DNA of 49,704 nt from a virus. Positions 4,520 through 35,171 of the stretch are shown here, piece after piece. The position numbers and the translations under genes are program-made. The DNA lies in the IMG/VR virus record IMGVR_UViG_3300044463_000016. One strand, given 5' to 3'. Each line of letters starts with the position of its first letter. Position 1 is the first letter of the stretch. The notes below the pieces were generated by a model. It was not told the DNA's origin, made no database searches, and was given only the letters and a program-made list of their open reading frames with translations.

Positions 4520-5611
4520 ATGAACGCCGAAATCAATGAATTTCCTCAAGATCCCACGGCCGGCGCGGCAGAGGGGGAAATAGTAGACGACAACCTGACC
4601 GTCAACGCCCTGGCGCGGCAGGAAGCTGGGAGCGGCCTGGCTGTCATTAAGGCGAAAAACGAGATCATCAAAGCGCTGCGGGATCACTCGATCGCCATGA
4701 CCGACCCGCAGGACTGGACTTTGTTCAAGAAGCCCGAAGACCAGGGCGGGTTGATTACAGCCTTTCTCGACGACTCAGGCTGTCAGCGCATCGCTCCACT
4801 GTGGGGCATCGACGTCACGCCCGAGGGCAACCGCGATTCTTTCCACGTCGAGCAGCTCAACGTCGGAGACGATTACCTGATCACCATTAGCGGAGACGCC
4901 TTCTGTCACACCACGGGAGCCACCATTCGCGGGATTGAGGGCTGCCGCGGCTCTGACGAGGACTTTGTCAAGCACGTCACAGGGACTCGGAAACTTTCCT
5001 ACGTCCGCAAGGCAGCGTTTGCAAACCTCTCAGGCGGGTGCGTTCGCAAGATCACAGGGCTGTCCAGTCTGCCGCTGTCGGAGCTAGAGCGCGTTTGGAA
5101 GCCACTCGGCAAGAACTGGCAGCACTGCAACAAGGGCCGTGGTTTCGGCGCTGCAGAGAAGCGCTTTGGGACCGGAGAGACGGGCACAGAGCCGAAATGC
5201 CCGAAGTGCAACGGGCCTATGAAACTCATCAAGCCGAAGCCAGGCGCGACATGGCAAGCCTTCTGGGGGTGCGGCCAGGGGAAAGACAAGTGCAAAGGAT
5301 CTGTGCAGGACGCCGATTGGCAGAAGGCCGTTGCGGCGCGCAAAGCCGCAGAGCCAGATACAGAGGCGGTCGCAGCTCCCGCAGAGGAAGCGCAGCGCGA
5401 GCCCGGCGACGCGCCAGCCGAGCCGAACGGCAAGCCACCTGGCGACGATACTGAACAGGCCATCGGGAAAATGAAATACCGGCTGCAGCAGCGCATTGCC
5501 GGCAAGCCCTGGCAGAAAGAGATCCTCGCGATGGTACTCAAGGCAAAAACTCTCGACGACCTGGTCGACCTGGAGACGGTGATCATCGATCGAGAAAAAG
5601 GAGGTGCCTGA
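4520..5611 (+). CDS. Putative single-strand annealing / recombination protein with C-terminal C4 zinc ribbon
   Basis: 363 aa with a strong SD (aaaaggagg). The segment KCPKCNGPMKL...FWGCGQGKDKCKG resembles a topoisomerase-type zinc finger. It is directly coupled (TGATG) to the downstream nuclease. Confidence 0.4.
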   Translation: MNAEINEFPQDPTAGAAEGEIVDDNLTVNALARQEAGSGLAVIKAKNEIIKALRDHSIAMTDPQDWTLFKKPEDQGGLITAFLDDSGCQRIAPLWGIDVTPEGNRDSFHVEQLNVGDDYLITISGDAFCHTTGATIRGIEGCRGSDEDFVKHVTGTRKLSYVRKAAFANLSGGCVRKITGLSSLPLSELERVWKPLGKNWQHCNKGRGFGAAEKRFGTGETGTEPKCPKCNGPMKLIKPKPGATWQAFWGCGQGKDKCKGSVQDADWQKAVAARKAAEPDTEAVAAPAEEAQREPGDAPAEPNGKPPGDDTEQAIGKMKYRLQQRIAGKPWQKEILAMVLKAKTLDDLVDLETVIIDREKGGA

Positions 5612-6690
5612 TGACCACAGCAACCGCAGTCGAACCCGAGCAGCTCGCTAGCGCGATGGTGAAAGCCTGCGAGCGGTTCGTTGAAACCGTGGAGGGACGG
5701 CCCAAGAGCGAGGACTCGAAGCCGTACATTCAACCCAATGTGTGGGCGGGCCAGTTCTCGAGCTGTGCCCGAGAGATGACGCTCCGGATGACGAAGAGCC
5801 ACGAGCTACCGCCGTTCAAGCCTGAGCAGCTCGCACGGTTTCGCCGCGGGAAAGATCGGGCCCGCAATGTGAAATCGGACCTGGAACAAGCGGGGCGCGA
5901 CGCGAAACCCTCGTTTGAGTTGATCGGCGCGGAGGAGCGATTCGAGGTGCGCGAGAGCGACGTCGTTGTCATTACCGGAAAGGTGGACTGGAAAACCCGG
6001 TTCGCCATTCCTGGAACGCGGCCGATCCCGACCGAATACAAGAGCTGGTCGCCCTTCCTGACTGACAGGATTGAGCGCTTCGAAGATTTGTTCGAGAACC
6101 GGTGGACGAGGAAAGGAGCCTATCAGTTGCTCGCCTATATGTGGGCGATGGGCAGCGAAATCGGCTTCCTGGTTCTCGATCGGCCCGGGATCCCAAAGAT
6201 TCTGCCCGTCTCACTGTTCGCCAACGAAAACGCCAACCTGGCGCGCGTCGAGAAATTTCTCATCCTGGCCGCGACGGCCGTCAAGCACAAGAACGCGGGT
6301 ACGCTGCCCGGCTACATCCAGGACGTTGAGGTCTGCAAAGCCTGCGATTTCCTCGGATCCCACTGCCAGCCGCCGATGCTGGCCGGCGCCGGCGCGAAGA
6401 TGTTTACCGACGAGTTTCGAATGCACCACGTTCAACGCTACTGGGAGATCGTCGAAGCCGGCAAGGAGTACGCGAAGCTCTGGGACGTGATCAAAGAGGA
6501 CTTCCGCGGCGTGGAATACGGGCTCTGCAGCGAGACGCTGATCCAAGGCAAGTACGGCAAGAACACGACGGTTGTTGTACCTCCGGAGCACCAGGCCCTT
6601 TACGACTCATGGAAGAAAGTCGATCTGAAAGGCAAGTTCACTCTGAAGCTCACCCGGCTCGGAACGGCCAAGGAGGCGGACGAATCATGA
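5611..6690 (+). CDS. PD-(D/E)XK exonuclease, Cas4/RecB-like with Fe-S cysteine cluster
   Basis: 359 aa. Nuclease motifs are GKVDW, EYKSW and QLLAYMW. Cysteines are SSC(A) near the N-terminus plus CKACDFLGSHC near the C-terminus, the typical Cas4/AddB 4Fe-4S pattern. Confidence 0.75.
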   Translation: MTTATAVEPEQLASAMVKACERFVETVEGRPKSEDSKPYIQPNVWAGQFSSCAREMTLRMTKSHELPPFKPEQLARFRRGKDRARNVKSDLEQAGRDAKPSFELIGAEERFEVRESDVVVITGKVDWKTRFAIPGTRPIPTEYKSWSPFLTDRIERFEDLFENRWTRKGAYQLLAYMWAMGSEIGFLVLDRPGIPKILPVSLFANENANLARVEKFLILAATAVKHKNAGTLPGYIQDVEVCKACDFLGSHCQPPMLAGAGAKMFTDEFRMHHVQRYWEIVEAGKEYAKLWDVIKEDFRGVEYGLCSETLIQGKYGKNTTVVVPPEHQALYDSWKKVDLKGKFTLKLTRLGTAKEADES

Positions 6691-8777: not shown

Positions 8778-10916
8778 TTGTTGATCCAAGCCGACAGCCG
8801 GCATCTACCCGTCAAGACCGCCAGCGTGCAATGCGTCGTGACCAGCCCGCCGTACTGGGGCCTGCGCGACTACGGCCTGCCACCAAGCGTGTGGGGTGGA
8901 GACCCGGAGTGTGGGCATGACTTCGACCAGCGCCGCTACTACACAGAATCAAGCGCTGCGAAGTCAAATGGGAGCGCTGAGGCTTTCTCGAAAGCCGGGC
9001 CTGACAACGCGAGGAGACTGAAAGAAGCACGCTGGAGAACAGATGCTTTTTGCCGCCAGTGCGACGCTTGGCGCGGCTGCCTCGGGCTGGAACCGACTCC
9101 AGAACTCTATTTGACATACATGGTCGCTGTCTTCCGGGAAGTGCGCCGCGTCTTGAGGAACGATGGGACGCTCTGGCTGAATATCGGAGATTCGTACAAT
9201 GCGCACCCAGGCCAAAGAACCGAGCACGACAAAGCCGGATGGAAGCAAGCCAGCAATCGTGGATCGTGCGAAACTGCAAGCCGTTCAACTACTGGCCTCA
9301 AGCCTAAAGACCTCGTAGGCATCCCGTGGCGCGTCGCGTTCGCGCTCCAGGCCGACGGCTGGTACCTTCGCTCTGACATCATCTGGAGCAAGCCCAACGC
9401 GATGCCGGAGAGCGTGACTGACAGGCCGACGAAGAGTCACGAGTACCTTTTTCTGCTGGCAAAGTCGGAGAGATATTTCTACGAAGCGGATGCGATCAGG
9501 GAATCCGCTAATGGCTGGAATGGTTCTCGCTTTGAAGATGGTAAGAATCTGATGGTGCATCCAAACGTAGGGAAGAATAGACCGAGTGCTGAACGCGGCT
9601 CCTTCAACGGCAAGACTGAAGCGATGGCCGACGAGGGACGCAACGCCTTCCGAGCCGTCACAGGGACCCGCAACAAGCGCTCGGTCTGGACAATCGCAAC
9701 TCAGCCCTACAGTGGAAGCCACTTCGCCTGCGTCGATGAAGAGACTGAGTGCCTGACATCAACTGGATGGAAGAGCCATTCTGATCTTCAGCCAGGAATG
9801 CTTGGAGCACAGTTCAACCTCACGACCGGCAAAATGTCCTGGGCTCCAATCGAAGATATTGCGCGTTACGAAGTTAGCAGCCAGAACATGGTAGTGGGAT
9901 CGTGTCGAGATATGGACATGTGGCTGACGCCAAACCATCGCACTGTGATTCAGCGCAGGCACTCTAGTACCAGGAAATGGCAACAGCCAACGATTATCCT
10001 CGCTGAAGGATTGAAAGCCTCACACAGTGTACCGACTGCCGCCGATTGGTCGTTTGAGGGAGATGCGACAACGCCGCTGGAATGGGCCGAACTACTTGGT
10101 TGGTATGTGGCGGAAGGGCACGAGTCTAAAAATTGTCTAACCGTTGAAATCTACCAGAGTGCCGCCGCTAATGGGCCTAAATGCCGACGGATTGAAGAGT
10201 TACTGAGACAGACTGGAGCAGAATGGACAAAAGCCACATGCAAAAGAACCTGGCTTGATCGGGACGCTGACATGACGGCTTATCGCGTGATGGGCTATGC
10301 CGCTGTCAGGCTGCGCGAGATGGCACCGGGGAAGCGCCTCCCCTGGGGAACGGTTCTTTGGTCGCATGATCGGATTGCGGCTCTGCTTGCCGGTCTCATA
10401 GATGGTGATGGTCACGAACGGGCTGATGACGGGCGTAGATGCTTTGTCCAAAAAGATAATGACCAATGCGGTTTGGTTCAGGCGCTTTCTTTGCGACTAG
10501 GAATGTCTGCAACTGTCGGCCTGCACAAAGATAGCGGCTGCGGCATCGTCTATCTCACAAGTCATAAAACACGCTCGTTTCGTGGCACGAATGGTGCTGG
10601 ATCACCACCGAGCATTCAGAAATATACAGGCGTCGTTTGGTGCCCGAAACTCCCTGATGGGACTTGGATGGCACGTCGCAACGGCAAGCCATTCATCACA
10701 GGCAACACCTTCCCTGAGAAGCTCGTTGAAATCTGCCTGCTCGCCGGGTCCCGACCGGGAGATCTCGTCTTCGACCCATTCGTCGGGAGCGGCACGGTGA
10801 TCCGGGTCGCGACCAGGTTACAGCGGAAAGGGGTTGGCTGTGATCTCAGTTGGGACTATCTGGACAAACAGGCAGACAAGCGCATGAGAGACGTGCAGGT
10901 GGAGCTGCAATACTGA
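8778..10916 (+). CDS. N4/N6 DNA methyltransferase (beta class) precursor containing an intein
   Basis: 712 aa with a TTG start 9 nt after ggagg. Motif IV TSPPYWGL is near the N-terminus. SHFA ... TFPEKL and motif I VFDPFVGSGT are at the C-terminus. A 326-aa in-frame insertion splits the conserved HFATFP box. Confidence 0.85.
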   Translation: MLIQADSRHLPVKTASVQCVVTSPPYWGLRDYGLPPSVWGGDPECGHDFDQRRYYTESSAAKSNGSAEAFSKAGPDNARRLKEARWRTDAFCRQCDAWRGCLGLEPTPELYLTYMVAVFREVRRVLRNDGTLWLNIGDSYNAHPGQRTEHDKAGWKQASNRGSCETASRSTTGLKPKDLVGIPWRVAFALQADGWYLRSDIIWSKPNAMPESVTDRPTKSHEYLFLLAKSERYFYEADAIRESANGWNGSRFEDGKNLMVHPNVGKNRPSAERGSFNGKTEAMADEGRNAFRAVTGTRNKRSVWTIATQPYSGSHFACVDEETECLTSTGWKSHSDLQPGMLGAQFNLTTGKMSWAPIEDIARYEVSSQNMVVGSCRDMDMWLTPNHRTVIQRRHSSTRKWQQPTIILAEGLKASHSVPTAADWSFEGDATTPLEWAELLGWYVAEGHESKNCLTVEIYQSAAANGPKCRRIEELLRQTGAEWTKATCKRTWLDRDADMTAYRVMGYAAVRLREMAPGKRLPWGTVLWSHDRIAALLAGLIDGDGHERADDGRRCFVQKDNDQCGLVQALSLRLGMSATVGLHKDSGCGIVYLTSHKTRSFRGTNGAGSPPSIQKYTGVVWCPKLPDGTWMARRNGKPFITGNTFPEKLVEICLLAGSRPGDLVFDPFVGSGTVIRVATRLQRKGVGCDLSWDYLDKQADKRMRDVQVELQY
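9729..10706 (+). mobile_element. Intein with LAGLIDADG homing-endonuclease domain
   Basis: Starts at Cys (CVDEETECLTSTG, block A). Has WLTPNHRTV (block B TxxH) and two LAGLIDADG motifs (LLGWYVAEGH and LLAGLIDGDGH). Ends ...KPFITGN followed by Thr. Excision restores SHFATFPEKL. Confidence 0.85.
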
Positions 10917-13703: not shown

Positions 13704-14168
13704 TTATGCCCCCACTGGATAGAGATCAATCGGCAACTCCATATGCGGCCCATCAAGAAACGCGCTCTTACCCAAAGCCTTCCTTGCCGTGACGTATTCG
13801 GAGACGCGATCCTCGAGCGGCTCATCTAAAGCGTTCAGGCGACTCCAACAACCACCCCAGCGGATTGGAATTGATAACTCCACAGCAGCCTGCTTTACGG
13901 CCAGCGCTATCACATAGATCGGTGGCCACTCCCAACGCAGCTTGCCGTTAATGACAGGTACCAGATCCACGGCATGCCCGGTCAGATGGCGAGACTGCAT
14001 AGTCTGCGAGGCACCAGCCAAAACTAGTTTTCGTTGCTCTTCGACTGTGCGTTTGCCGTCATGGACAGCAAAGTCTACCGTGGTCAATTCCAAGGCGCGC
14101 TTAACGACTCGAACTAAATCCGGATGGACTCCGGCTAGCTCTGCTTTTGATTTTGCGCTGAGCATCAT
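13704..14168 (-). CDS. Endolysin, peptidase M15 (VanY / L-Ala-D-Glu peptidase type)
   Basis: SRHLTGHAVDL and DGPHMEL form the H-x6-D...H zinc site of M15 peptidases. The start is moved to ATG 14168 (ATGA overlap with the upstream stop). Confidence 0.85.
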   Translation of the reverse strand: MMLSAKSKAELAGVHPDLVRVVKRALELTTVDFAVHDGKRTVEEQRKLVLAGASQTMQSRHLTGHAVDLVPVINGKLRWEWPPIYVIALAVKQAAVELSIPIRWGGCWSRLNALDEPLEDRVSEYVTARKALGKSAFLDGPHMELPIDLYPVGA

Positions 14169-14419
14169 GGTTGCAACGTCTTTGACAAGGCCATAATAAA
14201 GCCGATGATGGGGATGCCAGCCGCGGCCGCGCCAGCCAGGGCTCCCCAAATGCCCGCTTTTACTGACAGCTTCCCGACCTCGATCCTTAGCAGGGTAATT
14301 TGTTCCTGGACGACCCTGACCTCGCTTTCGAGCACCTCGATGTCTCTGATGAGCGCTTTGCGATCGTTATCGCCTGAGCGTCGTCCAACGTTCTCAGTGG
14401 GAGCGTCTCCGGCCATCAT
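14165..14419 (-). CDS. Small coiled-coil protein with C-terminal TM (holin/antiholin or lysis regulator)
   Basis: Start at the tandem ATG ATG (14419/14416) just after aggagg. Has a central heptad-like region and the C-terminal TM GIWGALAGAAAAGIPIIGFIMAL. Confidence 0.55.
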   Translation of the reverse strand: MMAGDAPTENVGRRSGDNDRKALIRDIEVLESEVRVVQEQITLLRIEVGKLSVKAGIWGALAGAAAAGIPIIGFIMALSKTLQP

Positions 14420-14427: not shown

Positions 14428-15294
14428 CTAGAGCTGTGAACAAATATCCACTTCGCCAATGAGTCCACCCCCACCGGGGGGCCCTCCAGGATCGCTACCG
14501 CCGCCTCCTGATGATGGAGCAGAGGTTGTCATCCATAGATAGCGCCGATAGAAAGGATAATCCTCCGGTTCATACTCACAGCCAATACCTGGCCCCTCCT
14601 CGACCTCTGTTCCGTTGACTGTAAACGGTCCAGCACTGCTTGATCCTCCTTCGATGCTCGGCTCCGGATCTCTGCCAACTACATCAACACAATACTTTAT
14701 TCCCGTACCATGAACATCGCAGCTCATCTCAAGCCGCAGTTCCTCCAATGACAAAACCCCGGTGCGGAGTCCTATTTTAGTCAGACTGCCGTTCCAGTTC
14801 ACGGCCGGGCCGCCGGTTAGAAGTTCACCTTGTCTGACATTCCCAAACAGCAGGCTATCCACCCCTAATTCTGCGAACCCGCCAGTGCGCGTGCCAGTAC
14901 CGATCACGGCCAAGTTGTCTCGTGTGTCTCCTGCGTAGAAAATGACATTGTTAGAGCCAGCAAACCGGTCATATGTAACGGCGATATACGTCCAATTCGA
15001 CAAATCCGGGCAAGCAACACTCTGAAATTGGGAAGGATCGTCAACCGGATCACCTGTCGCGAAAAAATAGAGTCTTTGATCTGGCCCAACAAAGACCGCC
15101 CAGCCGTTGTGAAAGTCGAACAGCCGTCCAGCCAGTCCGGCTCGCCTTTCTGGGAATGGATAATCCTGCTTTGCCCACGCCGAGAAGGTGAATGCATTGT
15201 AACTGTCGCTCGACGAGGGACTTGATAGATGGTCGCCTGAGGTATTGACGAAAACCGAAGCGCCACGACCTGAAAAATGTCGAGCAATTCCCAT
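14428..15294 (-). CDS. LamG/concanavalin-A-like lectin-fold virion protein
   Basis: 288 aa. FTFSAWAK, WTYIAVTYD and VIFYAGD resemble Laminin_G_3-type jelly rolls. Gly/Pro-rich C-terminus SSGGGGSDPGGPPGGGG. Confidence 0.55.
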   Translation of the reverse strand: MGIARHFSGRGASVFVNTSGDHLSSPSSSDSYNAFTFSAWAKQDYPFPERRAGLAGRLFDFHNGWAVFVGPDQRLYFFATGDPVDDPSQFQSVACPDLSNWTYIAVTYDRFAGSNNVIFYAGDTRDNLAVIGTGTRTGGFAELGVDSLLFGNVRQGELLTGGPAVNWNGSLTKIGLRTGVLSLEELRLEMSCDVHGTGIKYCVDVVGRDPEPSIEGGSSSAGPFTVNGTEVEEGPGIGCEYEPEDYPFYRRYLWMTTSAPSSGGGGSDPGGPPGGGGLIGEVDICSQL

Positions 15295-16216: not shown

Positions 16217-19200
16217 TTACCTCCCTGGTTGAACCTGTGGCTCATTGCGCCGGCTTTCACGCTCGAGCTTTCGGAAACTCGAGGGCGACTGCGTCCGGGC
16301 CCGCATCATCTCGCCCAAGAGCCTTTCATACTCCGCGGGGCTCAAGATCTTTCGATACTCCATCAGGAGCCTTTCTTTCTCGGTGTTCGATTGGGCGTTG
16401 ATGATCGCCTCCAGATACGGATTGCCTGGCACACGCGCGGCCCATCGAAAATAGCGGCTCTGAAATTCCGTTTCGCTCACGTCGCGGCTCACCTTGCCCT
16501 CGCTCCGTAGCTCCCGATAGAGTTGTCGCATGTCGCCGCGGTCTGGCTTCCCCTTGGCTTTCACGGCCGCGTTGATGGATTTCTGTATCCGGCCTTGGAC
16601 GTCGAGAGTCCCGGCCGCTTTTTCCTGTCGAACCTCCTGGCGCACGTCGCGCAGCCGATCGGCGATTCCCTGGTCGCTGATCTTGAGGAAGGCGCCAAGG
16701 ATGTTGCCGGGGAACGAGCGGAGGATTTCCTCGACCGGGGTTTTCGTCTTGACGAGTTCGTTGCGAGCCGGGTCGTACAGCACCGTGCCGCCCAACTCGC
16801 GCCAGGAGTGCTTTGCTAGCCCACTGGCAGCCGCAGTGCCTCCCGCTTCAAACTCCAGATCAGTCAGAACGGGCCGCCCGCGCCACTCATCGGTGGGGTT
16901 GTTGCCGTAGCCGTAGTAATCGAGGAGGTCTCCGCCGACTTTCAGGTAGGGATTCAACTTGGTCGGGCTCCACGGCACTTGCTCTGCAGTGAGATTGACT
17001 GCGCCGCCTTTCCCCATAACTCTGCCATGCGCTAACTTCCAAGCCAGCGCGCTCCAGAACTGGCCTTCATAGTCTTCTGGAATGCGCAGGTAAATCGATT
17101 TGCCGTTTTTGTCGAGGCCAAGCGGAATTGACGTGTAATTCGATTTGTCATACTCAGACATTCCGTCGATGATCCGCTTCAGAATTGAGCCCCCAAGCCC
17201 AGCCGCACCAGCAGCCAGGAGAAGCTTTGGCAGCATGTTCGCCGCCACCGTCTTCCACGCATAGCCGGAGCGGTCCTCGTTGAATGATTCCCAAGACGAG
17301 CGCCAGCCTTCCTTGTTCACATTTGAAAACAGGAACAAGTTATTAGTCAGCGCCTGCGCTTCTCCTTGGCGTTTAATATCAGGCGTTGCAGCCCTGGTTC
17401 TGACAACGTGCCCGATTTCCTTCTGAGTCCTCCAGCCTGGCTTGAGGTACTTAAAAGCGGCGATCTTCCCCGGAATTTCTGACAAGCGACCAAGCCGGTT
17501 CAAGTAATCCGATAGCTTGGCAAGTTTTGCGCGTGCTCCGGAAGCTTCGCGCGCCGCGCCCGTGTCGACTAGAAACTCAGCCGCCTGCCGTTCCAGCTCA
17601 TTTTCAAAGGTCTGCTCCCTCGCCTCATAGGCCCTGCCAGGCAGCAGCATCCGCCCGCGTTGCATCTCGCCAATGTCCTCGCTCCGCTCCCCTTTCATCA
17701 GATAGCGCCAGGCTTCACGGAAAGCATCGTTGTACGCGCGCGCCAGGCGAGCCGCGTCCTTCGGGTTCAAGGCCCCGATCTCCGGCAGGTTTTTGTAGGT
17801 TTGCCGGATGTCACGGAAAACGTTGCGCGCCATCCAGAGCGGGTTTTTCGCCACGAAGATATCCCGGAGTAGCGACATACCCGAAGCCATCACCTCGGCG
17901 ATCTTGGTCGCCTCGAACGGTTGGGCCTCGTAAGACTTTGCAATCGCCTCGCTCACGTAGACGTGAACCGGCTTGCCTTTGTCAAGGTAGGTCATCAGCG
18001 CTTGCCGCGGGTTCGCCGGCTCCTTCGGTACACGGGCGCCGACGTTCGCGTCCCACTTCATTTCTGCCGGCGTGAAAGCCTCTGGATCGTTCAGCCGGAA
18101 ATGGTCGATCAGTGACCGCTTCGACTCATTCACCTTCGCCGATCGCAAAACAGCCATATCCTGAAGAGCCGTGACCACCAGCGGATTCTCAATGCCTGAC
18201 AGCGTTCCCACTTGCTTGTAGACACGCGCGGACACGCCCGGCCCATAGGTCTTATCCAGCCAGTGGGAGACGCCAAACCGCACGTAAGCCTTGTGGTCTT
18301 TCATCAGCTCGATCAGCTCTGGCGAGTAGATCCCAGAAGCCTCGGCGCGCGGGATGATCAGATCCTCGCGCAACCGACGAAACTCGGCAGCCGCTTCCTC
18401 CAACTTTCCAAACTTCTCCGCGCCGAGCTCCGTCTTCATGCCGTCGAGCGTCTTCCGCGCCGTCGCTTCGCTGTACCCCAGCGGGTTGCCCATCAGCTCG
18501 CGTTCGCCCTCGGCGATGCGAGTCAAGAATTGATAAGTCCCGAGCTGGTCCGGCGTGAGACCCGCTTTGCGGATCGGTTGCAGGACCTGGCTGCCAATAT
18601 CTTCCAGGTAGTTGCCAGCCTCGCTGGCTAGGTACTGGATTTCCTCCAAGTCGTAGCGTGCCTCGCTGGCAGCCGCACCCATGATGCCGCCCTGCCTTTC
18701 GCCCTTGCGGACGGATTTGAGGGCCCCTTGGCTGCGATCGATCAATTTGCGCATCAGCCAGTTCGTAGCATCCTCCACGCGCGACCTGCGCCGCTTGTTC
18801 AGCTCCTCACGGCGATTGCGTCCTTCCTCGAACATGTCCTCGACGCGTCCCAGCCGCGGAGGAATGTTGCCGCCTCCCCCGCCGCCGAGCCGGGCTTGGA
18901 TGTCGTCATAACTCTCCTTCACGTCTGGCTTGCGCTCCATGTAGTTGAAGATTCCCCGCCAGAAGTTTGGTGCCATCTGCTGTAGCTTGTCTGGCTCGTT
19001 CATCAGCACGGAGAAGGCGTCCGCGTAGAGTTCCTTGCCGGAATAGCGGTAATCCCGATACTTCGGATCAACCATATCCTCGTTGAACGGCTTCCAGTAC
19101 TGAGTCACAGCCTTGAGCTCGTCGCTCACCGTTTCGTTTTCCAGCAACGCCCGTTTGCGGATCTCCTCGATGATCAACTCGCGATACTTCTTGGACACTT

Positions 19201-22200
19201 CTTTGGGATCCGGCTTGCCCTTGCGACGGAGCACGCGGCCTGTCTTTTCCATCGTGACTTTGGTTGGAAAGTCCGGGAACACGGGCGGGCCGGGCGTCTT
19301 GCCTTTCATGGCTTCGACGACAACCTGCTTCTTGGTCGCGCGATCAAGCCGCGCGATGTACTCATAAAGCCGCTTGTCGATGCCTTCGGCGCTGGCGACC
19401 GTGTTCCGCCAAATAGCGAGGACCTCATCGGGGGTGTAGGGCGTCTCTTTCTTGATCACTTCATCGATGCCGATCTCGGCGTCGGTCTTTAACGCGTCAT
19501 TCGCCAACTTGCGAATTCGCCGGCGATCCTTGTCGGTCAGCCCTGCCGGGCCGCCAGGCCAGCCAGGAAGCGTATGCTTCAGGTGTTCTTTCAGCGAAGC
19601 GATGCGGCCCAGCAGATTGCCGCGATCCAGCATCTGGTGAGTGTCCGGATCTTTCGAGTCCGCCACCCAGTCGATCAAGTGGCCCAGTTCGTGAGCCATC
19701 ACCTTGGGCGCAAGCGTCGGATCTTTCCGGTAGGCGAGGAATTCCCACATTCCCTTTCGCCGGTTGTATTCCTTGGTGAAGTGCAGATCCGCTTCAGGGA
19801 TGCCGCTCGACTGCCGAATGCGCTGCTTGAACTCATCAAACGCCTCAGCCGACCCTTTGGCAGGCACCACTTTCCTGGCCAGCCGTTCGCCGATGAACAG
19901 ATCGCGCCGCAGCTTGATGTCAGCAGCCGCGCCCGGCCCTTCTGTGTGGGTCATTCGTCCCAGGGCGCGACCTAAGAATTTCTTCAACGCCGGCAGCTTG
20001 CCCTCATTGATTGCCTGTGCAATCTCGACCAGCTCGGGCATCTCGACGCGCGCCCTTTCGAGATTGGCGTAAGCCGCCCGCTCCGGGCCAGGTCGCGCGG
20101 CTCCTGCTTCAGTTTCTGGGCCTTCCCTCTCGACGCGCGGCTCGACTGGTGCCAAGCCGGGCTTGTAGCCGCCTTCGGACGCTTCACCGCTGGGAGGCTT
20201 CTTCTCTGCGCCAAACATCTCGCCTTGAACGGTGGGCTCCTCGGTGCCAAACAGCGGGCCTCGGACGTCGCCCATGCGTCGAGTGACTTTGCCCTTTCCT
20301 GACCGGATCAGCTCAGCCTCGGCTTGCTTCCGGCTCTCGGCGGCCGCGTCTGCCATCCCTTTGGCAACGCTCTCCATCGTGACGGGGGGCTCCTCGGACT
20401 TTCGAGGTAGAACTTGTGGAGTAACGATCTTTGGCTGAAGAGACTGGTGGGCTCTTTCTTCAATGTTACGAGCCTGCTGCTCACCGGATTTGTAGGCTGT
20501 CTTCAGAGTCTGGACGATCTCAGCAGTAGGAGTCCCTTTCTGTACCAGTTGGATCGCGTGTTGAAGTGGAGTAACTGGAGTCTCAACCTTCGGTTCTGCT
20601 TTGGCTTCTTCGGGTGTCTCCTCGGGAGTGATAGTCGGCTCGGGGGTTTCCCGCTCCGGTATATTACTTGCGGGTAATCCTTCTCCGGGAACCTCGCGTT
20701 TGACTAGGGTCTCGGTGGGTTTTACTTCTGCGGGGGCTTCTGCTTTGACTTCTGGCTCTGCCGGCGCTTCAGCTCTTTCTGCTGGCGCGCCGAGCTTGAA
20801 TTGCATCCGCTCCGGTTCGAGGTCGAGATCCTTCAAGGGAACGCGGCTCACGTCCTCAAAAAGCGGCTTCCCCTTGCGTGTCAGCTTCCGGTACTTTTTG
20901 GCTGTCTCGCCGGCTTTGGCAGATCCCATAGCTGCGTCGGCTTCGGCCTGGGTGTCGCCAGCTCCACCGCGCAGGTAGTTGGAATATTCAGAGTCTCCGA
21001 TCGGGCGCTCTCCATAAATGGCCTTGGCACGTTCTACCAGCTCCGCCATGCTCCCTTTAGGCCCGATCGCATAGATTTCATCGCCCTTGGGGGTAAAAAC
21101 GCGCGGAGGGAGGCCAAGCTCCTTGGAAGCCTGGGCGACCGCCTCGGCCGCGGCCTTGATCTCTCGGTCGCCGGCTTGGGGACTATCCAGATCATTCCGA
21201 GCTTTCATGTTAGCCACGTCGAGCGAGGCAATCTCGGTCTCTGGGTCAAGTTCTGCTGTCGGAAGTGCTCGTTGCAGGGCCGCCGCACTGCCATAGCCGG
21301 TTTTCGGATGGACTTCAAGCTCGCGCCTGGCAACGTCGCGCTGCTCCTCGGCGGCTTCCTTCTGGCGGATCAGCTCCTCCACGTAGGGCTCGGCGGGCTT
21401 CAGGCGACCTCTGTGGCCTGGGATCCAGGTCTTTTCAATGGGCGCCGGTTCCCAACCGGGCGGGAGCGTCTCAGGAATTGCCGGTTTCGTTTCACCTAAA
21501 GCCCCTTCCGTCTCGACTTTGGGCTCCAACGTTCCACGTGGAGCCTTAGTCGTCTCAACGATTGGCTCCTCAAATGCGCGCGGCCTGATCGGTTCGGCTT
21601 CGACATTGAGGCGCGGCTCAGGTGTCCGTGCCCGTGGCGGGCCTTCGACGGTAATGCTTGGCTCAACAAACGCCTCGCCCTCTGCAAGCCGCCTTTGCCC
21701 ACCAGGAAGCGGTTGATCTGTCAGGATCTCGCCGGTCTTTGGCTCCGGTCGCGGCCTGAATCCTAAGAACTCCCCAGTTTTACGTACTGCCTCCCTCGCT
21801 CCTGGAAAGTCCTTATACTGTTTGCCGCCAAGTCCGGCCCCGTGAGCGCCAGTCAACCCAATCAACCCGCCCGCTGCCATCATTTGGCCGAGGATTCTTT
21901 CAGCCCCATCGATGTCGCCAGCGTCGAGAGCTGCCCTGAATTGCCGCCCTTGCTCCGGGAACTCTGACAGCATGTCCACGGAAAACCCGAGACTGACGGC
22001 CCTGCCCAGAGGCCCGGTTGCAAGTCTCATCAGTGCCCCGGAAGACCAGAGGGCTGCATTGCTCAGGCTTGGCGCTGTCAGCGAAGACAGGACATCGGCG
22101 ACGCCCTTGACCAGCGGCATGTCGTCGGGAGCAAATTCCGCGAAGTTAACCAGCGGAGCATTCCCCTCCGGCTCGATCTTTCCGCCTGCTTTCAGCTTGT

Positions 22201-22879
22201 CTTTCCAGGTGCCGAGAAAGGTCTCAGGGCCTTGCGTCGCCCGGTAAAAGTTTTCACCTTGCCCGGCTGCAGCCTGAAACTCCAGGTCTTGAGCTCCGAG
22301 CGTTGCGCTGGTGGCTTGCTGCTGCTCTACGGGCGGTATAGCTCCGGGCGGCGGGGCCGTAATGGGCTTGGTTCGGCTCACCATTCCAGGAGGGAGGTTG
22401 CGGATCTGCGAGCCAAACGGAACGCTGATATCTGCGGTCTGGCCAACTACGGGTGGGCGGTTGAGCTTTGAAAATACATCCAGCGGCACCACTGCGTTAG
22501 CAATTGGTCCCTTTGGTCTGAGAGGCCGTGGGGCAGAAATCCCCGCCTCGGGTACTGGCGCTGCGAGACGCTGTGGAGCGACCGAAGGCGGGGCTGCAAC
22601 CGGCCCAGGAAGAGGAGAGGCTCCCGGGTGCGTCCCGGCTGCCGATGTGGGTGGCGGTTGTACTTGAGGTTCTGTGGGCGGGGTAACGGTACGCGGAGGG
22701 CGGTAGGGCATATCCTCGGCTGGTGGCACCACAGTCCGGGGCGGACGGTAGGGCGCGTCGGTGATCTCCTGCTCGAAACCCGCGGGGAGTGTGTCGAAGG
22801 GGTTAGGGCGAGACTCCTCCCGAACGGATGTCTCCGGTTCAAACCCTTTCGGCAGCAGTGTTAGCGCGCTGGTACCCAT
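16217..22879 (-). CDS. Giant polyvalent virion/ejection protein (2220 aa) with HExxH zincin motif
   Basis: A single uninterrupted ORF. The N-terminus is Pro-rich with a tandem PYRPPRTV(V/T)PP repeat. There is a degenerate GGDEF-like segment at aa 523-665. The MAHELGHLIDW zincin motif (nt 19679-19693) has a distal ELYADAFSVLM segment. The remaining roughly 900-aa C-terminal region is uncharacterised. Confidence 0.8.
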   Translation of the reverse strand: MGTSALTLLPKGFEPETSVREESRPNPFDTLPAGFEQEITDAPYRPPRTVVPPAEDMPYRPPRTVTPPTEPQVQPPPTSAAGTHPGASPLPGPVAAPPSVAPQRLAAPVPEAGISAPRPLRPKGPIANAVVPLDVFSKLNRPPVVGQTADISVPFGSQIRNLPPGMVSRTKPITAPPPGAIPPVEQQQATSATLGAQDLEFQAAAGQGENFYRATQGPETFLGTWKDKLKAGGKIEPEGNAPLVNFAEFAPDDMPLVKGVADVLSSLTAPSLSNAALWSSGALMRLATGPLGRAVSLGFSVDMLSEFPEQGRQFRAALDAGDIDGAERILGQMMAAGGLIGLTGAHGAGLGGKQYKDFPGAREAVRKTGEFLGFRPRPEPKTGEILTDQPLPGGQRRLAEGEAFVEPSITVEGPPRARTPEPRLNVEAEPIRPRAFEEPIVETTKAPRGTLEPKVETEGALGETKPAIPETLPPGWEPAPIEKTWIPGHRGRLKPAEPYVEELIRQKEAAEEQRDVARRELEVHPKTGYGSAAALQRALPTAELDPETEIASLDVANMKARNDLDSPQAGDREIKAAAEAVAQASKELGLPPRVFTPKGDEIYAIGPKGSMAELVERAKAIYGERPIGDSEYSNYLRGGAGDTQAEADAAMGSAKAGETAKKYRKLTRKGKPLFEDVSRVPLKDLDLEPERMQFKLGAPAERAEAPAEPEVKAEAPAEVKPTETLVKREVPGEGLPASNIPERETPEPTITPEETPEEAKAEPKVETPVTPLQHAIQLVQKGTPTAEIVQTLKTAYKSGEQQARNIEERAHQSLQPKIVTPQVLPRKSEEPPVTMESVAKGMADAAAESRKQAEAELIRSGKGKVTRRMGDVRGPLFGTEEPTVQGEMFGAEKKPPSGEASEGGYKPGLAPVEPRVEREGPETEAGAARPGPERAAYANLERARVEMPELVEIAQAINEGKLPALKKFLGRALGRMTHTEGPGAAADIKLRRDLFIGERLARKVVPAKGSAEAFDEFKQRIRQSSGIPEADLHFTKEYNRRKGMWEFLAYRKDPTLAPKVMAHELGHLIDWVADSKDPDTHQMLDRGNLLGRIASLKEHLKHTLPGWPGGPAGLTDKDRRRIRKLANDALKTDAEIGIDEVIKKETPYTPDEVLAIWRNTVASAEGIDKRLYEYIARLDRATKKQVVVEAMKGKTPGPPVFPDFPTKVTMEKTGRVLRRKGKPDPKEVSKKYRELIIEEIRKRALLENETVSDELKAVTQYWKPFNEDMVDPKYRDYRYSGKELYADAFSVLMNEPDKLQQMAPNFWRGIFNYMERKPDVKESYDDIQARLGGGGGGNIPPRLGRVEDMFEEGRNRREELNKRRRSRVEDATNWLMRKLIDRSQGALKSVRKGERQGGIMGAAASEARYDLEEIQYLASEAGNYLEDIGSQVLQPIRKAGLTPDQLGTYQFLTRIAEGERELMGNPLGYSEATARKTLDGMKTELGAEKFGKLEEAAAEFRRLREDLIIPRAEASGIYSPELIELMKDHKAYVRFGVSHWLDKTYGPGVSARVYKQVGTLSGIENPLVVTALQDMAVLRSAKVNESKRSLIDHFRLNDPEAFTPAEMKWDANVGARVPKEPANPRQALMTYLDKGKPVHVYVSEAIAKSYEAQPFEATKIAEVMASGMSLLRDIFVAKNPLWMARNVFRDIRQTYKNLPEIGALNPKDAARLARAYNDAFREAWRYLMKGERSEDIGEMQRGRMLLPGRAYEAREQTFENELERQAAEFLVDTGAAREASGARAKLAKLSDYLNRLGRLSEIPGKIAAFKYLKPGWRTQKEIGHVVRTRAATPDIKRQGEAQALTNNLFLFSNVNKEGWRSSWESFNEDRSGYAWKTVAANMLPKLLLAAGAAGLGGSILKRIIDGMSEYDKSNYTSIPLGLDKNGKSIYLRIPEDYEGQFWSALAWKLAHGRVMGKGGAVNLTAEQVPWSPTKLNPYLKVGGDLLDYYGYGNNPTDEWRGRPVLTDLEFEAGGTAAASGLAKHSWRELGGTVLYDPARNELVKTKTPVEEILRSFPGNILGAFLKISDQGIADRLRDVRQEVRQEKAAGTLDVQGRIQKSINAAVKAKGKPDRGDMRQLYRELRSEGKVSRDVSETEFQSRYFRWAARVPGNPYLEAIINAQSNTEKERLLMEYRKILSPAEYERLLGEMMRARTQSPSSFRKLERESRRNEPQVQPGR

Positions 22880-29666: not shown

Positions 29667-30479
29667 TCAAGAAGTGTGTTCGTAATGAAAGGCGCCCTGG
29701 CCAATCAAGGATCCACTAGCACCCGTTGTGCGGCAGGTGAATAGAGCCTCAATTCCCCAGAAGTGGCTGCTTGCCTGCCGTAGTAAGCGAGCCGCCGTTG
29801 TAATTTGGCAAGCTCCAACCTTCACTCTCAAGTTCAAAGAAGGCCCCAAAGTCGGGTTCGTAAAGTAGCCGTAGGCGGTAATCCGAAGACTCTTATCCAC
29901 GGAATTAAAAAAAGAGGCCGGCAACGACGGCACAGCTGGAGCAAACAGCGTCGTTTCTGCAGTCACAGAAACAGTTTTCGTTTGCGATTGGCTGTAGAAG
30001 ACCTCTGGTACTCCCTGCGTAGCAACTCCAGGCGAACCGCCGGCACCAGTCGCCGTCATGGGAGTCCAGAAGACCGTGTAGGGGCTTACCTCACTCATTT
30101 GGTACTTGCAGTTTGCGCGCCAGTAGGTAGTACCTGCAGGCATCGGAACGGCTAAATGCAGCCCGTGACCGAGGGTGTACCGGGTGACTTCCTGAAACGT
30201 CCTGGTTGTCGAAGACTCGACAAAGTAGAAAGCCGTCGGCAGGTTTCCCTCGCCGGCTTCCAGTAGGACGAGCACGGCTCCAGCGATCGACACGACGTTG
30301 ATCGACTTCGGTGCCTTCGGCGGCGGGATCGCTTCGGCAACGTCCACCTGGTTGGCCGGCTTGGGATCCACTCCCATTTGCAGGCCAAACTCATTGATCG
30401 CTTCCGTGACGAGGCGCCAGAGATTGAAGGCGTCCGGGTCCCGATGCTTCATATCCGCGATTTGGCTCGGAGTCAGCAT
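29667..30479 (-). CDS. Tail structural protein (270 aa)
   Basis: ORF trimmed to ATG 30479, which shares one nt with the upstream TAA (TAATG). Confidence 0.6.
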   Translation of the reverse strand: MLTPSQIADMKHRDPDAFNLWRLVTEAINEFGLQMGVDPKPANQVDVAEAIPPPKAPKSINVVSIAGAVLVLLEAGEGNLPTAFYFVESSTTRTFQEVTRYTLGHGLHLAVPMPAGTTYWRANCKYQMSEVSPYTVFWTPMTATGAGGSPGVATQGVPEVFYSQSQTKTVSVTAETTLFAPAVPSLPASFFNSVDKSLRITAYGYFTNPTLGPSLNLRVKVGACQITTAARLLRQASSHFWGIEALFTCRTTGASGSLIGQGAFHYEHTS

Positions 30480-32743
30480 TAGACGTTGCCTCCCCGATGC
30501 TTCGCGTAAGGATGCTCTTTGGCCCAGATTGCCATCTCCGCGCACGAGAACCACGAATCAATGGCGTTGGTGCCGACCTTGAAGCTCACCCGCTCGCTCT
30601 GTACGTCGACCATCTTTTCGAGGTCTTGAGTTGCCGGGCTCGAAAGCGTCATGGGGTTCCATGCCGTGGAAGCCCCGCCTTGCCGAAACGTCGTGAAGCT
30701 CAGAGAGCCAGACCCACGAGCTACGCAGGTGAAGTAACCGAATTCCTGACGGCCGGCTTCCGCTCGGGAGAGGTAGGTCGAACGGTAATAGCCATTGATC
30801 GCGGCACCGTTGTCACTGAGGGCGCTGTTCAGGTTCTGGTGCACCATAGCCGAGCCGTCTGCCATCCCTACAAAGAAGCGTGTGTCTTGGTTATCGCGTT
30901 CGATGATGGCGCCGTAAGCTGCGCGGATGAACCACGGGCACCACTTCCGGCCCTTGCCATTACCTTCGATCGGATCGCCGAAGCCCTCTTGGTAGTCGAG
31001 GACAAGCATCAGGTTCGGCTGCTCGCCCGTGCAGAACGGAGCCCCGACGTAGATCCGCTTGCGCTTTGTGTCCACCTTCACCCAGAGCAGGTGGGCGAAA
31101 TCCCAGTTGATCGAGTCCCACGTAGGTTGAATTTCCTGCGAGATTTTTTGGGGTTTGCCGCCGTCGAAGTAGTACAGCCCGGAGCGGTTCGCGATGACGA
31201 CCCAATTCTCTCCAATCCCAACACCATGCACAGAAGGAGTCCCTACGGTCGCGCTTTCTTCCTTCACAGACCACTTGCTTGGCTCATTGACGCCATCGTC
31301 TTGCGTCGAGTGCATGGATGAGTCTTTTGCCCAGTACCACCGCTCATTCAGCTCAAAGCCTGTCCGGATGGCCTGCCCATCGTTCTCCGAGATATTCATC
31401 AAGCCGAAGACGTTGTCGTAAAACTCCGGAGCATCGGCGCCGCTCCACCGCGCGAGGGAACCCTCGAAGTTCTCGCCCACGAACGGATCGCCACCCCACC
31501 AGACGAGGCGTCGCCCGTATCTGGCGACTCCGAGTTGGCCTTGGAAATCCGTGTTTGCGGTAGGGACCTGCTGGCGGAAAAGCGGCGAAATGTCCTCGCC
31601 CTGGACGAGCTCCTCTTCTGAGAAATCGAGCTCAATCTCAGTAGTCGTGTTGTCGTTGAGCGTCATTTTCACGGGGATGTGAAAAAACGTCTGCCCCTCG
31701 GATGCCGTAAAAGCCAGGTGCCGTTTCGTCACGGGCCGCTCGCCAATGGAGCTCGACCAAATTGGGATGTTGGTGACGTGGACTTTCTTCCCACCCGCCG
31801 CCGTCCAGCCTCCTGCGGGAGAGGGCGCGGACAGGCCACCGGCAGCGTTCTCGAAGTACACAACGACCTGGCGCTCGCCGGCAACGATCCGTCCGCCTCC
31901 GGAGTTATTCGCGCCCGGCTCGGTCTTGGTGATGTCCACATCCGCATCGGCGAGGTTGTCGGTGAATTCGGTCGTCGTGTTGTCGTCGATGTAGCCGACG
32001 TAATAGTAGGTCGCGCCTCCCGCGAGGGTGCGATAGATCCGCCGCTTGGCGACGACGCCCACGGTACCCGTGGCGACGCTTGTCAGTTGCACCTTCCCAT
32101 GCGTGGCAGGGATCGCAACAACTACGTTGGAAGCAGGGCTCGCGAGAGTGACAGCCGTCGTACCATCGCCTGTGACCAGGACTGTTTTATAGCTGTAGTT
32201 TCCGGCAGACAGATTGCCCGCTTCAGCGATAAGGGTCGCAACGGGGGCGAGGGTCGGATCAGGCTCCACTGTGCCGAGATCCCAAACAGTGGGGTTCTTG
32301 GCGGGCGGCTGGTTGCCCACGAGATAGAGGTTGGTATCGTCATAGACCACCGGGAGACTTCGGCCCACCTGCCCATCGCTTTCTGCGATCCATTCCTTTC
32401 CGAACAGCGTGACGGATTCATAGATTGAGTCTGGAGTGAACGTCGTTGAGATTGTTGTCGTCGAGCCGGGCGTTACTTCCTGGAACATCTTGCCTGTCGA
32501 GTCCCACATCAGCAGGCGAGCGTCGAGATCTGGGGTTTTGAACGTCTTCAGGTACGGCACGCTCGATGGCACCGTCAGGGTATGCACCAGATCGAGGCCG
32601 GGACGGGTTCTTACATTTCCTGGGAAAAAAGCAACATCACGGCAATCTGGACTGCAACCGATCGGAACATCGGCTCCATCCAGCACACTCACCAAGCCGC
32701 CCATGACGTCCACCGGTAAGGCTTCGAAACTCTCTACCGACAT
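30479..32743 (-). CDS. Large tail structural protein (nozzle / tubular-B-like by size and position)
   Basis: 754 aa and beta-rich, with gaggag SD. The call rests on its size and its position after the adaptor-like genes in a tape-measure-less phage. There is no motif proof. Confidence 0.5.
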   Translation of the reverse strand: MSVESFEALPVDVMGGLVSVLDGADVPIGCSPDCRDVAFFPGNVRTRPGLDLVHTLTVPSSVPYLKTFKTPDLDARLLMWDSTGKMFQEVTPGSTTTISTTFTPDSIYESVTLFGKEWIAESDGQVGRSLPVVYDDTNLYLVGNQPPAKNPTVWDLGTVEPDPTLAPVATLIAEAGNLSAGNYSYKTVLVTGDGTTAVTLASPASNVVVAIPATHGKVQLTSVATGTVGVVAKRRIYRTLAGGATYYYVGYIDDNTTTEFTDNLADADVDITKTEPGANNSGGGRIVAGERQVVVYFENAAGGLSAPSPAGGWTAAGGKKVHVTNIPIWSSSIGERPVTKRHLAFTASEGQTFFHIPVKMTLNDNTTTEIELDFSEEELVQGEDISPLFRQQVPTANTDFQGQLGVARYGRRLVWWGGDPFVGENFEGSLARWSGADAPEFYDNVFGLMNISENDGQAIRTGFELNERWYWAKDSSMHSTQDDGVNEPSKWSVKEESATVGTPSVHGVGIGENWVVIANRSGLYYFDGGKPQKISQEIQPTWDSINWDFAHLLWVKVDTKRKRIYVGAPFCTGEQPNLMLVLDYQEGFGDPIEGNGKGRKWCPWFIRAAYGAIIERDNQDTRFFVGMADGSAMVHQNLNSALSDNGAAINGYYRSTYLSRAEAGRQEFGYFTCVARGSGSLSFTTFRQGGASTAWNPMTLSSPATQDLEKMVDVQSERVSFKVGTNAIDSWFSCAEMAIWAKEHPYAKHRGGNV

Positions 32744-34519: not shown

Positions 34520-34551
34520 AAAAAACCCCACTGAGCGCAGCGAGCACTCAG
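34520..34551 (-). terminator. Putative intrinsic terminator
   Basis: The - strand RNA is cugagugc-ucgcu-gcgcucag (8-bp stem including one G-U pair), then ugggg UUUUUU. The stem includes the upstream stop codon. A 110-nt intergenic gap follows. Confidence 0.45.
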
Positions 34552-35171
34552 CGACGTCCATACGGAATACGCCTTACCTGCTTGTATTGGTCTGCTCTAA
34601 CCTGTGACGAAATCAGGCTAGCAATGCTGTCCTCAAACCGATCTTCGGCACCGGCTGCGCCAGCCAGGGCCGCCGCTTTGTAAGCAATGGCGCTGGCCGC
34701 CCCTACGATTGGCACCGTATCCGTGAGAAAGCTGGGTGCAGTTAGCTCCTTTTCATAGGACACTTTCACCGTCACGTCGCGCGTTGCCCCAATGAACATG
34801 ATCTGCGCGCCGCGCCAGTTCCAGAGCCGCAACCGGCTGGTGCGGTCTACATCCGGCAGGAGGTTTTCATCCCTCTCGAGAGGTTGATACTTGCCAGTAG
34901 TTCCGTCGATCTTTTCTTCCAGTTGCCACGGAAGGACAAAATCAGCGTTGAGTGCGGGAGTACTGGTCAAACTCAGGAAAGTCGCATTGGCCGGCACGGT
35001 CAGCTCCTGAATCCCTCGCAGCAGAGGCATTCCGTTCTCCGCGCAACGTCGTTGGCACGCACGAAGCGCCTCGATGATGAAAGGCATCAGGGCACCTTCT
35101 TTCCATTTGAGCCCAAGCGGGTCCTGCAAGAGTCGTTGCGCTAGGTTGAAACTCTCCCTGTAAACCGCCAC
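34548..35171 (-). CDS. Adaptor/neck-type structural protein, paralog A (207 aa)
   Basis: Same length as, and alignable by eye with, the product of 35440-36063 (NLAxxLL, QRRxAxxG, W.W+...+F.G, A.AY..AA.A). Confidence 0.6.
   Translation of the reverse strand: MAVYRESFNLAQRLLQDPLGLKWKEGALMPFIIEALRACQRRCAENGMPLLRGIQELTVPANATFLSLTSTPALNADFVLPWQLEEKIDGTTGKYQPLERDENLLPDVDRTSRLRLWNWRGAQIMFIGATRDVTVKVSYEKELTAPSFLTDTVPIVGAASAIAYKAAALAGAAGAEDRFEDSIASLISSQVRADQYKQVRRIPYGRR

Follow-up and report, generated by a model that had tools for sequence, protein, structure and literature searches.

Phage-type polyvalent proteins were defined by Iyer, Burroughs, Anand, de Souza and Aravind (2017, J Bacteriol; PMC5512222). 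That study described a widespread phage-type clade of metallopeptidases (MPTases) with an Asp at position +3 after the HExxH motif, and it already reported a GGDEF domain together with an MPTase in a prophage polyvalent protein. Two giant proteins of cultured phages have been studied experimentally. The 2,811-aa gp47 of phi24B, which carries LPD5, LPD1, LPD38 and a MuF-C metallopeptidase, is abundant in virion proteomics and invisible in cryo-EM maps, and its authors propose that it is an encapsidated ejection protein (doi 10.64898/2026.04.10.717836). Gene 25 of the E. coli phage PTXU04 was classed as a Fit gene by CRISPRi-ART, since its knockdown strongly reduced plating efficiency, and it is reported as one of the genes whose plasmid-borne expression was toxic or interfered with infection (PMC11879866). 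The IMG/VR virus record IMGVR_UViG_3300044463_000016 was analysed over its full length of 49,704 nt (hereafter, the window). It contains a giant gene for a 2,220-aa protein, which probably encodes a capsid-packaged ejection protein of the phage-type polyvalent class, built as a conserved chassis with exchangeable cargo.

The gene takes up 13.4% of the window, in agreement with the 13% given in an earlier reading made from the letters alone (hereafter, the sequence-only reading). Its product has a mass of 244.8 kDa and an isoelectric point of 8.6, and is free of cysteine. The N-terminal part of the chassis is lineage-specific; it opens with a Pro-rich N-terminus, and an N-module of moderate hydrophobicity comes next. 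The C-terminal part spans ~1,290 aa and comprises the MPTase, with the motifs HExxHxxD and ELYAD, a Gly linker and a helical domain of ~885 aa. The cargo of the query is a GGDEF-family domain with the signature KGDEI, together with a small conserved region. The features of the C-terminal chassis and of the cargo are located as follows (homologous proteins are given by P numbers):

16217-22879, minus strand: giant gene, an open reading frame (ORF) of 2,220 codons (6,663 nt)
18890-20086, minus strand: zincin-like MPTase domain with lineage-specific insertions, residues 932-1330
19670-19693, minus strand: HELGHLID, the HExxHxxD active-site helix, residues 1063-1070
18992-19033, minus strand: ELYADAFSVLMNEP, helix with the invariant Glu, the presumed third zinc ligand, residues 1283-1296
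18869-18886, minus strand: linker of six Gly between the MPTase and the C-terminal domain, residues 1332-1337
16220-18868, minus strand: mainly helical C-terminal domain of ~885 aa, residues 1338-2220
17165-17251, minus strand: most hydrophobic helix of the protein, residues 1877-1905
20882-21373, minus strand: GGDEF-family (palm/nucleotidyl cyclase) domain, residues ~503-666, recognised by transitive homology
21074-21088, minus strand: KGDEI signature, residues 598-602, aligned to the GGDEF of P0180 and P0181
20183-20551, minus strand: small conserved region, residues ~777-899, common to P0002, P0003 and P0009

Three sets of observations place this protein in the polyvalent class. It combines a GGDEF-family domain, a zincin-like MPTase and a large C-terminal domain, with low-complexity linkers between them. 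It is encoded with the late and virion genes, on the same strand as TerL and the major head protein and before the endolysin. Finally, a homologue search of 5.8 billion proteins yielded seven giant relatives of 1,900-3,700 aa, in which BLASTP showed the N-module (query residues 5-440) and the C-module (residues 932-2220, 27-56% identity) to be conserved and the middle to be variable. The middles of these relatives contain RadC-JAB, LPD3, LPD38, InPase, SNF2/helicase, GNAT and DUF7178 domains, and close relatives hold RadC, GNAT, SNF2 and other domains at the very position of the query's cargo. Further relatives carry GGDEF, ART-PolyVal with ParB_N, or RadC. Because the homologues thus carry hallmark polyvalent domains, the assignment to the class of PMC5512222, which the sequence-only reading had also proposed, is supported.

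The likeness to the described class is close. As in PMC5512222, a single giant polypeptide is made from late virion genes; its unrelated effector domains are joined by linkers; its hub is a zincin-like MPTase in which HExxH is followed by an Asp at +3 and, beyond a variable insert, by the Glu helix; GGDEF is an occasional cargo; and the homologues carry LPD3, LPD38, InPase, RadC, SNF2 and ART-PolyVal. The protein differs from the described class in three respects. No Pfam, PHROG or NCBIfam model, including the MPTase-PolyVal and LPD models, recognises the query, and scans of the whole protein and of six segments gave no significant match in these libraries. The ~885-aa C-terminal domain is not described in PMC5512222 as a unit. 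In addition, RadC-like JAB domains are present here in giants with phage context (P0003, P0006, P0009 and P0176), whereas the paper found RadC solely in conjugative elements.

A profile built from query residues 1040-2220 and five homologues was scored against 1.84 billion cluster representatives (50% identity). With a cut-off of E<=1e-3 it matched 4,761 clusters, of which 1,893 also passed E<=1e-30. Judged by sequence conservation, the zincin and the ~885-aa helical domain are one module of ~1,290 aa, the most widely conserved part of the protein. The sequence-only reading had seen no recognisable motif in the last ~900 aa. That statement agrees with the library scans, where the last ~890 aa had no match in Pfam, PHROGs, NCBIfam or PDB sequences, but it overlooks the wide conservation of the region. 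The same reading had regarded the domain combination as undescribed, a view that does not hold, given the GGDEF and MPTase pairing of PMC5512222 and the thousands of relatives that combine the MPTase with the C-terminal domain.

Within the module family, the end of the module lies no more than 30 aa from the C-terminus in 161 of 177 members, while the N-terminal extension before it ranges from 0 to 4,835 aa and the total length from 1,048 to 5,898 aa. A fixed C-terminal placement behind a variable N-terminal extension is the pattern expected of a chassis with variable cargo. The swappable cargo of module proteins includes RadC, SNF2, LPD3, ART and GGDEF, and some members carry LT_GEWL.

The module is rare in genome assemblies. 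At least five loci were confirmed, all in metagenome-assembled genomes (MAGs) and mostly on phage-sized contigs. The only listed copy on a long bacterial contig (682 kb) is in a Candidatus Synoicihabitans MAG (contig_2, 406839-415868; locus L011); if this copy is a prophage, as it may be, a host could be assigned to the otherwise uncultured family. A tblastn search of the C-module against 50,697 phage records returned the pelagiphage Baldr only. In Baldr, the 2,329-aa homologue is encoded directly before the tail fibre, behind the genes for some smaller proteins and for tail tubular proteins A and B, and thus occupies the T7 gp16 slot. Like T7 gp16 and other podovirus internal core proteins, the family protein is the largest of the virion-internal set, and its proposed exit from the capsid at infection is likewise by way of the tail. 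Unlike them, the query shows no sequence or fold similarity to solved ejection proteins, so that gene position alone is equivalent, and it has no lytic transglycosylase domain.

The MPTase is defined by two motifs that are nearly invariant in the family. HExxH is conserved in all 176 members compared, the extended HExxHxxD in 175 of the 176, and E[LIVMF]xA[DE] in 174. Such near-invariance indicates that these are not chance matches. The sequence-only reading had correctly picked out the zincin site MAHELGHLIDW and a third-ligand region at ELYADAFSVLMNEP; the first begins at residue 1061 and the second at residue 1283, so the spacing is 222 aa and not the ~240 aa it had given. The spacer between the HExxH and Glu motifs ranges from 47 to 217 aa over the family, with that of the query being the largest. 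Because its length varies among lineages, the spacer is a variable insert, which bears out the large insertion proposed in the same reading. HELGHLID fits the phage-type polyvalent MPTase clade of PMC5512222.

To analyse the arrangement of these motifs, a model of residues 925-1345 was generated with AlphaFold2 (AF2) from a 29-sequence alignment, and it reached a predicted local distance difference test (pLDDT) score of 89.4. HExxH lies in helix 132-147 of the model and the invariant Glu in helix 357-370, and both motif helices are preceded by an N-terminal helix and a beta-sheet. This predicted topology fits the zincin core layout given in PMC5512222. A Foldseek search of the model against the PDB returned nothing significant, with anthrax lethal factor at E~0.8. 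At the sequence level, the best PDB match of the profile was a snake-venom metalloproteinase, itself a zincin, over the active-site strand and helix (E=0.054), and a fragilysin-type metalloproteinase matched at the HExxH below threshold (E=0.047) in the library scans.

The sequence-only reading had compared the protease with ArdC, ImmA and Wss1. No match of the protease segment to ImmA/IrrE (M78), the ArdC C-terminal family or Wss1/SprT was obtained with Pfam (E<=10) or NCBIfam (E<=1), and the ImmA, ArdC and Wss1 families are missing from the Foldseek PDB matches of the model. This comparison is therefore not upheld.

The C-terminal domain was modelled in the same way from residues 1336-2220 and 31 sequences (pLDDT 81.8, predicted template modelling score 0.75). 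The model is mainly helical with two small sheets. Against the PDB, the best Foldseek match had E=0.2 and a template modelling (TM) score below 0.12, and the profile of the C-module had no PDB sequence match, nor did the whole protein. With no fold match in the PDB, the domain resembles no solved ejection, tail or tape-measure protein. Against BFVD, Foldseek returned 79 matches at E<=1e-3 with TM scores of up to 0.70. The matches listed are mostly C-terminal fragments of giant phage proteins, with names that include LPD-containing, LPD38, LT_GEWL, RelA/SpoT, Zeta-toxin, ART-PolyVal and methylase, and they include proteins of E. coli phage PTXU04, Ralstonia phage Alix and Cellulophaga phages phi19:3 and phi46:3.

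The most hydrophobic helix of the protein lies within this domain. Of 31 family members, 23 retain its hydrophobic character; equivalent helices occur in P0005 and in PTXU04 gp25, where the helix directly precedes LPD38.

Profile comparisons connect the C-terminal domain to a second clade that contains the two experimentally studied proteins. The LPD38 Pfam model (PF18857) had no match in the C-terminal segments of the query at E<=10. The profile of the C-terminal domain, in turn, matched P0005, which combines the N-module of the query with an LPD38 C-terminus, with an hhalign probability of 97.4% and an hmmsearch E of 7e-25. It matched PTXU04 gp25 (hhalign 95.9%, E=6e-9 over 512 columns), to which Foldseek also aligned the model in BFVD (E=3e-17, TM 0.58), and the phi24B giant (hhalign 98.8%, E=8e-17 over 488 columns; hmmsearch E=6e-14). 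In view of this significant profile-level homology to LPD38 C-termini, the query represents a sister clade of the same larger module, and Pfam LPD38 (~190 aa) appears to be a fragment of that larger module in the other clade. The LPD38 clade is found in 264 cultured-phage records, among them Stx phages, Ralstonia GP4-like phages, Vibrio phages, BA3 and Bacillus phage Page.

The phi24B giant (gp47; vb_24B_48 in HM208303) is encoded by the sole giant gene of that record (2,807 aa), and it is this protein that matches the family profile. Like the query, it closes the structural module of its phage, here a podovirus, has a C-terminal region homologous to the query's C-domain family and contains HExxH motifs. 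It differs in that the C-domain core alone aligns, the protease is of another type and does not adjoin the C-terminal domain, the cargo is LPD5 and LPD1 without GGDEF, and the phage is a temperate enterobacterial one. PTXU04 gp25 (2,197 aa, with LPD38 at 1904-2081) shares with the query its size, its place as the last large gene of the structural block, its C-terminal fold and a hydrophobic helix at the equivalent position before LPD38. Its direct identity to the query is ~13-14%, the N-terminal regions are unrelated, and the profile detects no adjacent HExxHxxD protease module.

These relatives bear directly on the principal alternative, namely that the giant protein is purely an anti-defence carrier like P1 DarB/DdrB, dispensable in hosts without defences, with the C-module serving as a packaging tag. 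Related giants in Ralstonia and Vibrio phages are annotated as "DarB-like antirestriction", the cargo domains RadC, SNF2, methylase, ART and GGDEF are typical conflict domains, and this is the interpretation of Iyer et al. (PMC5512222). However, PTXU04 gp25 is a Fit gene whose knockdown cuts plating strongly in laboratory strains (PMC11879866), and a protein needed for plaques in the laboratory favours a core role over a purely anti-defence one. Furthermore, a C-module of ~1,290 aa is far bigger and better conserved than a packaging tag requires, it persists in members that have almost no N-terminal extension, and the authors of the phi24B study favour an ejection-conduit role (doi 10.64898/2026.04.10.717836). 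A pure anti-defence carrier is thus unlikely, and less probable than a capsid-packaged ejection protein. The proposal of the sequence-only reading that such proteins are injected to disarm the host gives a partial picture, as the conserved C-module and the need for gp25 in plaque formation point to a core role in packaging and ejection.

A second alternative is a virion enzyme of the N4 gp50 type, in which the C-terminal region of the query would be a homologue of the domain by which the N4 virion RNA polymerase is encapsidated. In N4 gp50, too, an HExxH MPTase lies towards the C-terminus, and behind it comes a second large region that is required for encapsidation (PMC5512222), and the N4 gene order gp53, gp52, gp51, gp50 parallels that of Baldr. 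Nevertheless, hhalign of shallow and deep family profiles against the last 1,400 aa of gp50 found nothing (probability 0.2%), the query has no RNA polymerase domain match, and no RNA polymerase by name is among the best 50 BFVD matches. This homology is highly improbable. The least probable explanation, in which a long-tailed phage would encode a tape-measure or tail-length protein that also carries accessory enzymatic domains, would agree with the very large, mostly helical protein, with its hydrophobic segments and embedded peptidase motif, as in some tape-measure proteins, and with a source phage whose morphology is itself deduced, but it is very unlikely, as no tape-measure, sheath or tube family was matched in library scans, a family length that ranges from 1,048 to 5,898 aa by cargo swapping is incompatible with a ruler function, and every cultured module host that could be placed is a podovirus, as judged for PTXU04 and phi24B from their vB_EcoP names and cryo-EM and for Baldr from its T7-like gene order. 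BA3, VvAW1 and Bacillus phage Page are podoviruses too.

The cargo of the query was traced through intermediates. The direct scan of the segment gave no Pfam match, and TIGR00254 scored below threshold (E=0.1). A profile of residues 475-700 with four close homologues, searched against a large protein database, reached the stand-alone proteins P0180 and P0181 (~173 aa) at E=5e-19 and 1e-15, and both of these exceed the Pfam GGDEF gathering threshold (67-69 bits against 23.8). Against the PDB, the sole match was a GGDEF cyclase in the correct register, at a non-significant E=0.67. Because the profile reaches proteins that pass the Pfam GGDEF model, the segment is a true GGDEF-family palm. At the level of homology, residues ~503-666 are thus confirmed as a GGDEF-family domain with an unusual signature, as suspected in the sequence-only reading, which had noted a palm/GGDEF-like segment here.

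The alignment places RVFTPKGDEIY of the query onto RVFRAGGDEFV. The GD and DE positions, the Asn and, further upstream, the Asp that binds metal are all aligned and invariant, and PKGDE[ILV]Y is invariant in all five subfamily members. The active-site signature GG[DE]EF is absent; KGDEI stands in its place, preceded by Thr-Pro and not by Arg-x. The palm domain is therefore homologous to that of GGDEF diguanylate cyclases (PF00990; e.g. DgcB, PDB 6ttr); the Asp that binds metal, the Asn and GD that contact the base and the catalytic DE are common to both. It differs from these enzymes in having KGDEI and a Thr for the Arg at -2, in having no RxxD I-site, in being embedded in a giant putative virion protein, and in scoring below the Pfam and TIGR thresholds, such that the homology is visible through intermediates only.

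Taken together, a capsid-packaged ejection protein would act in the following manner. The giant protein would be made late and incorporated into the capsid via its C-module. At infection it would exit by way of the short tail, either before the DNA or along with it, and the N-module and the hydrophobic helix could aid in crossing the envelope or inserting into it. The metallopeptidase would then cut the polypeptide at its linkers, in the capsid or in the cell, and so free the cargo, and the GGDEF-type domain would make or bind a nucleotide signal and thereby manipulate the host at an early stage of infection. A bolder version of this proposal is offered tentatively and may well be wrong. It holds that the MPTase and the orphan-fold C-terminal domain, with their LPD38 relatives, could be an unrecognised podovirus ejection machine outside the T7 and P22 paradigms. 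Such a machine would be anchored in the capsid, would refold or insert via the hydrophobic helix and would form or extend a DNA conduit, while the protease would cut the cargo free and the KGDEI GGDEF-type cyclase could produce a nucleotide signal at the site of entry within seconds.

Several points weigh against this interpretation of the giant protein as an ejection protein. Its presence in the virion and its injection are deduced from homologues, through the phi24B proteomics, and we likewise infer the podovirus morphology of the source phage. The link to the studied proteins is remote (profile-level, 12-21% identity) and covers the C-terminal domain only, and function may differ between the clades. 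The zincin fold rests on motifs and predicted topology, because there is no significant PDB match; neither AF2 model has one, and the C-terminal domain yields no mechanistic clue. The hydrophobic helix at residues 1877-1905 is moderately hydrophobic (Kyte-Doolittle value ~1.5) and is packed within the helical bundle in the model. Finally, KGDEI lacks the first Gly and the -2 Arg of canonical enzymes, and cyclase activity may accordingly be lost or changed.

The N-terminal half contains the lineage-specific part of the chassis and the linkers that flank the cargo. The Pro-rich N-terminus with its 15-aa repeat and the P/E/K-rich linkers described in the sequence-only reading were all recovered, the linkers at residues ~401-500 and 701-800. 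The remaining features of this half are:

22280-22879, minus strand: Pro-rich, low-complexity N-terminus, residues 1-200, with 44 Pro
22676-22753, minus strand: two copies of PYRPPRTV(V/T)PP, residues 43-68, starting at residues 43 and 58 (period 15 aa)
21560-22282, minus strand: N-module, residues ~200-440, common to P0002-P0005, P0009, P0011 and P0156
20789-20869, minus strand: 27-aa island LFEDVSRVPLKDLDLEPERMQFKLG, residues 671-697, between the linkers
20727-20786, minus strand: DNA tandem repeat of two 30-bp copies, which encodes a P/E/K linker of the AEAPAEPEVK type

The PYRPPRTV peptide occurs twice in P0003 (residues 56 and 71), twice in P0009 (residues 40 and 63) and once in P0004 (residue 59). 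Its recurrence in homologues identifies it as a conserved short linear motif and not a chance repeat. In its longer form, APYRPPRTV, it lies near the N-terminus of the related giants amid divergent Pro-rich sequence, and it could be a docking or cleavage site. The N-module contains two Gly/Ala-rich, moderately hydrophobic segments (residues 254-272 and 329-351). The island LFEDVSRVPLKDLDLEPERMQFKLG is kept in P0003 (70% identity) and in P0009, where the sequence runs on with no linker; it is possibly the stub or edge of a cargo domain that was lost from the more compact query.

The start of the gene was assigned by homology. Residues 5-76 align to the N-terminus of P0003 with 53% identity (E=7e-17), which identifies the ATG at 22879 as the true start and the longer ORF as correct. 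The public (JGI) gene call, P0001, has 2,091 aa and begins at residue 130, thereby omitting residues 1-129 (window 22493-22879, minus strand). Since these residues are conserved in P0003, the database copies of the giant protein are truncated at the N-terminus. There is an overlap of 19 nt between the start of the gene and the stop of the 396-aa gene that precedes it. Around the giant gene, a promoter scan found sites no more frequent than expected by chance, and a terminator scan found nothing convincing flanking it.

The window carries an exact 127-bp direct terminal repeat (1-127 and 49578-49704), which shows that the contig is a complete phage genome of ~49.6 kb, either circularly assembled or terminally repeated. 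No DNA-level relative was found by megablast among the 50,697 phage records, and the phage is uncultured and distant from known phages; its source is JGI metagenome 3300034176. TerL (46817-48436; phrog_979, E=1e-30), the major head protein (39228-40508; phrog_14242) and the endolysin (13704-14249) are all encoded on the minus strand with the giant gene, and the opposite strand carries early and DNA-metabolism genes. The giant gene closes the structural block of this late operon, and the P0003 contig is syntenic with the window over the block. Genes for a lectin-fold (Laminin_G_3) protein and a peptidase M15 protein lie just downstream. The lectin-fold protein, a 288-aa concanavalin-like lectin (14428-15294, minus strand), is encoded at the T7 gp17 position, with two small genes between it and the giant gene, and may serve in receptor binding or as a fibre.

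A 754-aa structural protein (30479-32743, minus strand) is 81% identical to its counterpart on the P0003 contig, against 40-50% for the giant gene, and its residues 161-276 gave weak matches to esterase/lipase and to internal-virion-protein PHROGs. An 810-aa protein encoded beside the terminase (42422-44854, minus strand) is the presumed portal; it has no portal-family match, and its residues 231-268 weakly match a TFIIB-type zinc ribbon. None of the 810-aa, 754-aa and capsid proteins matched a PDB sequence, and tblastn against cultured phages was likewise negative for the last two. The statement in the sequence-only reading that this phage has no tape measure agrees with the lack of any tape-measure family match, but it is a deduction, as the other structural genes are without cultured or solved relatives. 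Two adjacent paralogous 207-aa genes (34548-35171 and 35440-36063, minus strand) share ~28-31% identity, measured via their counterparts at locus L001, and the L001 homologue of one of them has a weak SU10_adaptor Pfam match, which suggests a duplicated head-tail adaptor.

Two proteins of the opposite strand also stood out. The 712-aa DNA methyltransferase (8778-10916, plus strand) has its N6_N4_Mtase match split in two, with a LAGLIDADG-like domain at residues ~533-583 that may be an intein or a homing-endonuclease insertion. A 359-aa protein of the early region (5611-6690, plus strand) matches PHROG 1706, "CRISPR/Cas system associated" (E=8e-8), and may be a Cas4/RecB-like nuclease.

The polyvalent class, its MPTase hub and its GGDEF cargo are already in the literature (PMC5512222), as is the view of such giants as ejection proteins (the phi24B preprint). 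New here are the recognition of the MPTase and the C-terminal domain as one abundant, unmodelled module, the profile link to LPD38, the KGDEI variant and the corrected gene start. A seemingly featureless region is in fact a very widespread module with a strict protease site, no coverage in domain libraries and no solved structure, and a Pfam-type family for it would better annotate many metagenomic phages. With its KGDEI GGDEF domain, the query also offers a candidate for a nucleotide-signalling enzyme that is delivered by the virion. Phages commonly use polyvalent proteins to bring enzymes into cells, by a route that is almost wholly uncharacterised, and these results provide a testable chassis-plus-cargo model for such proteins and point to tractable E. 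coli phages.

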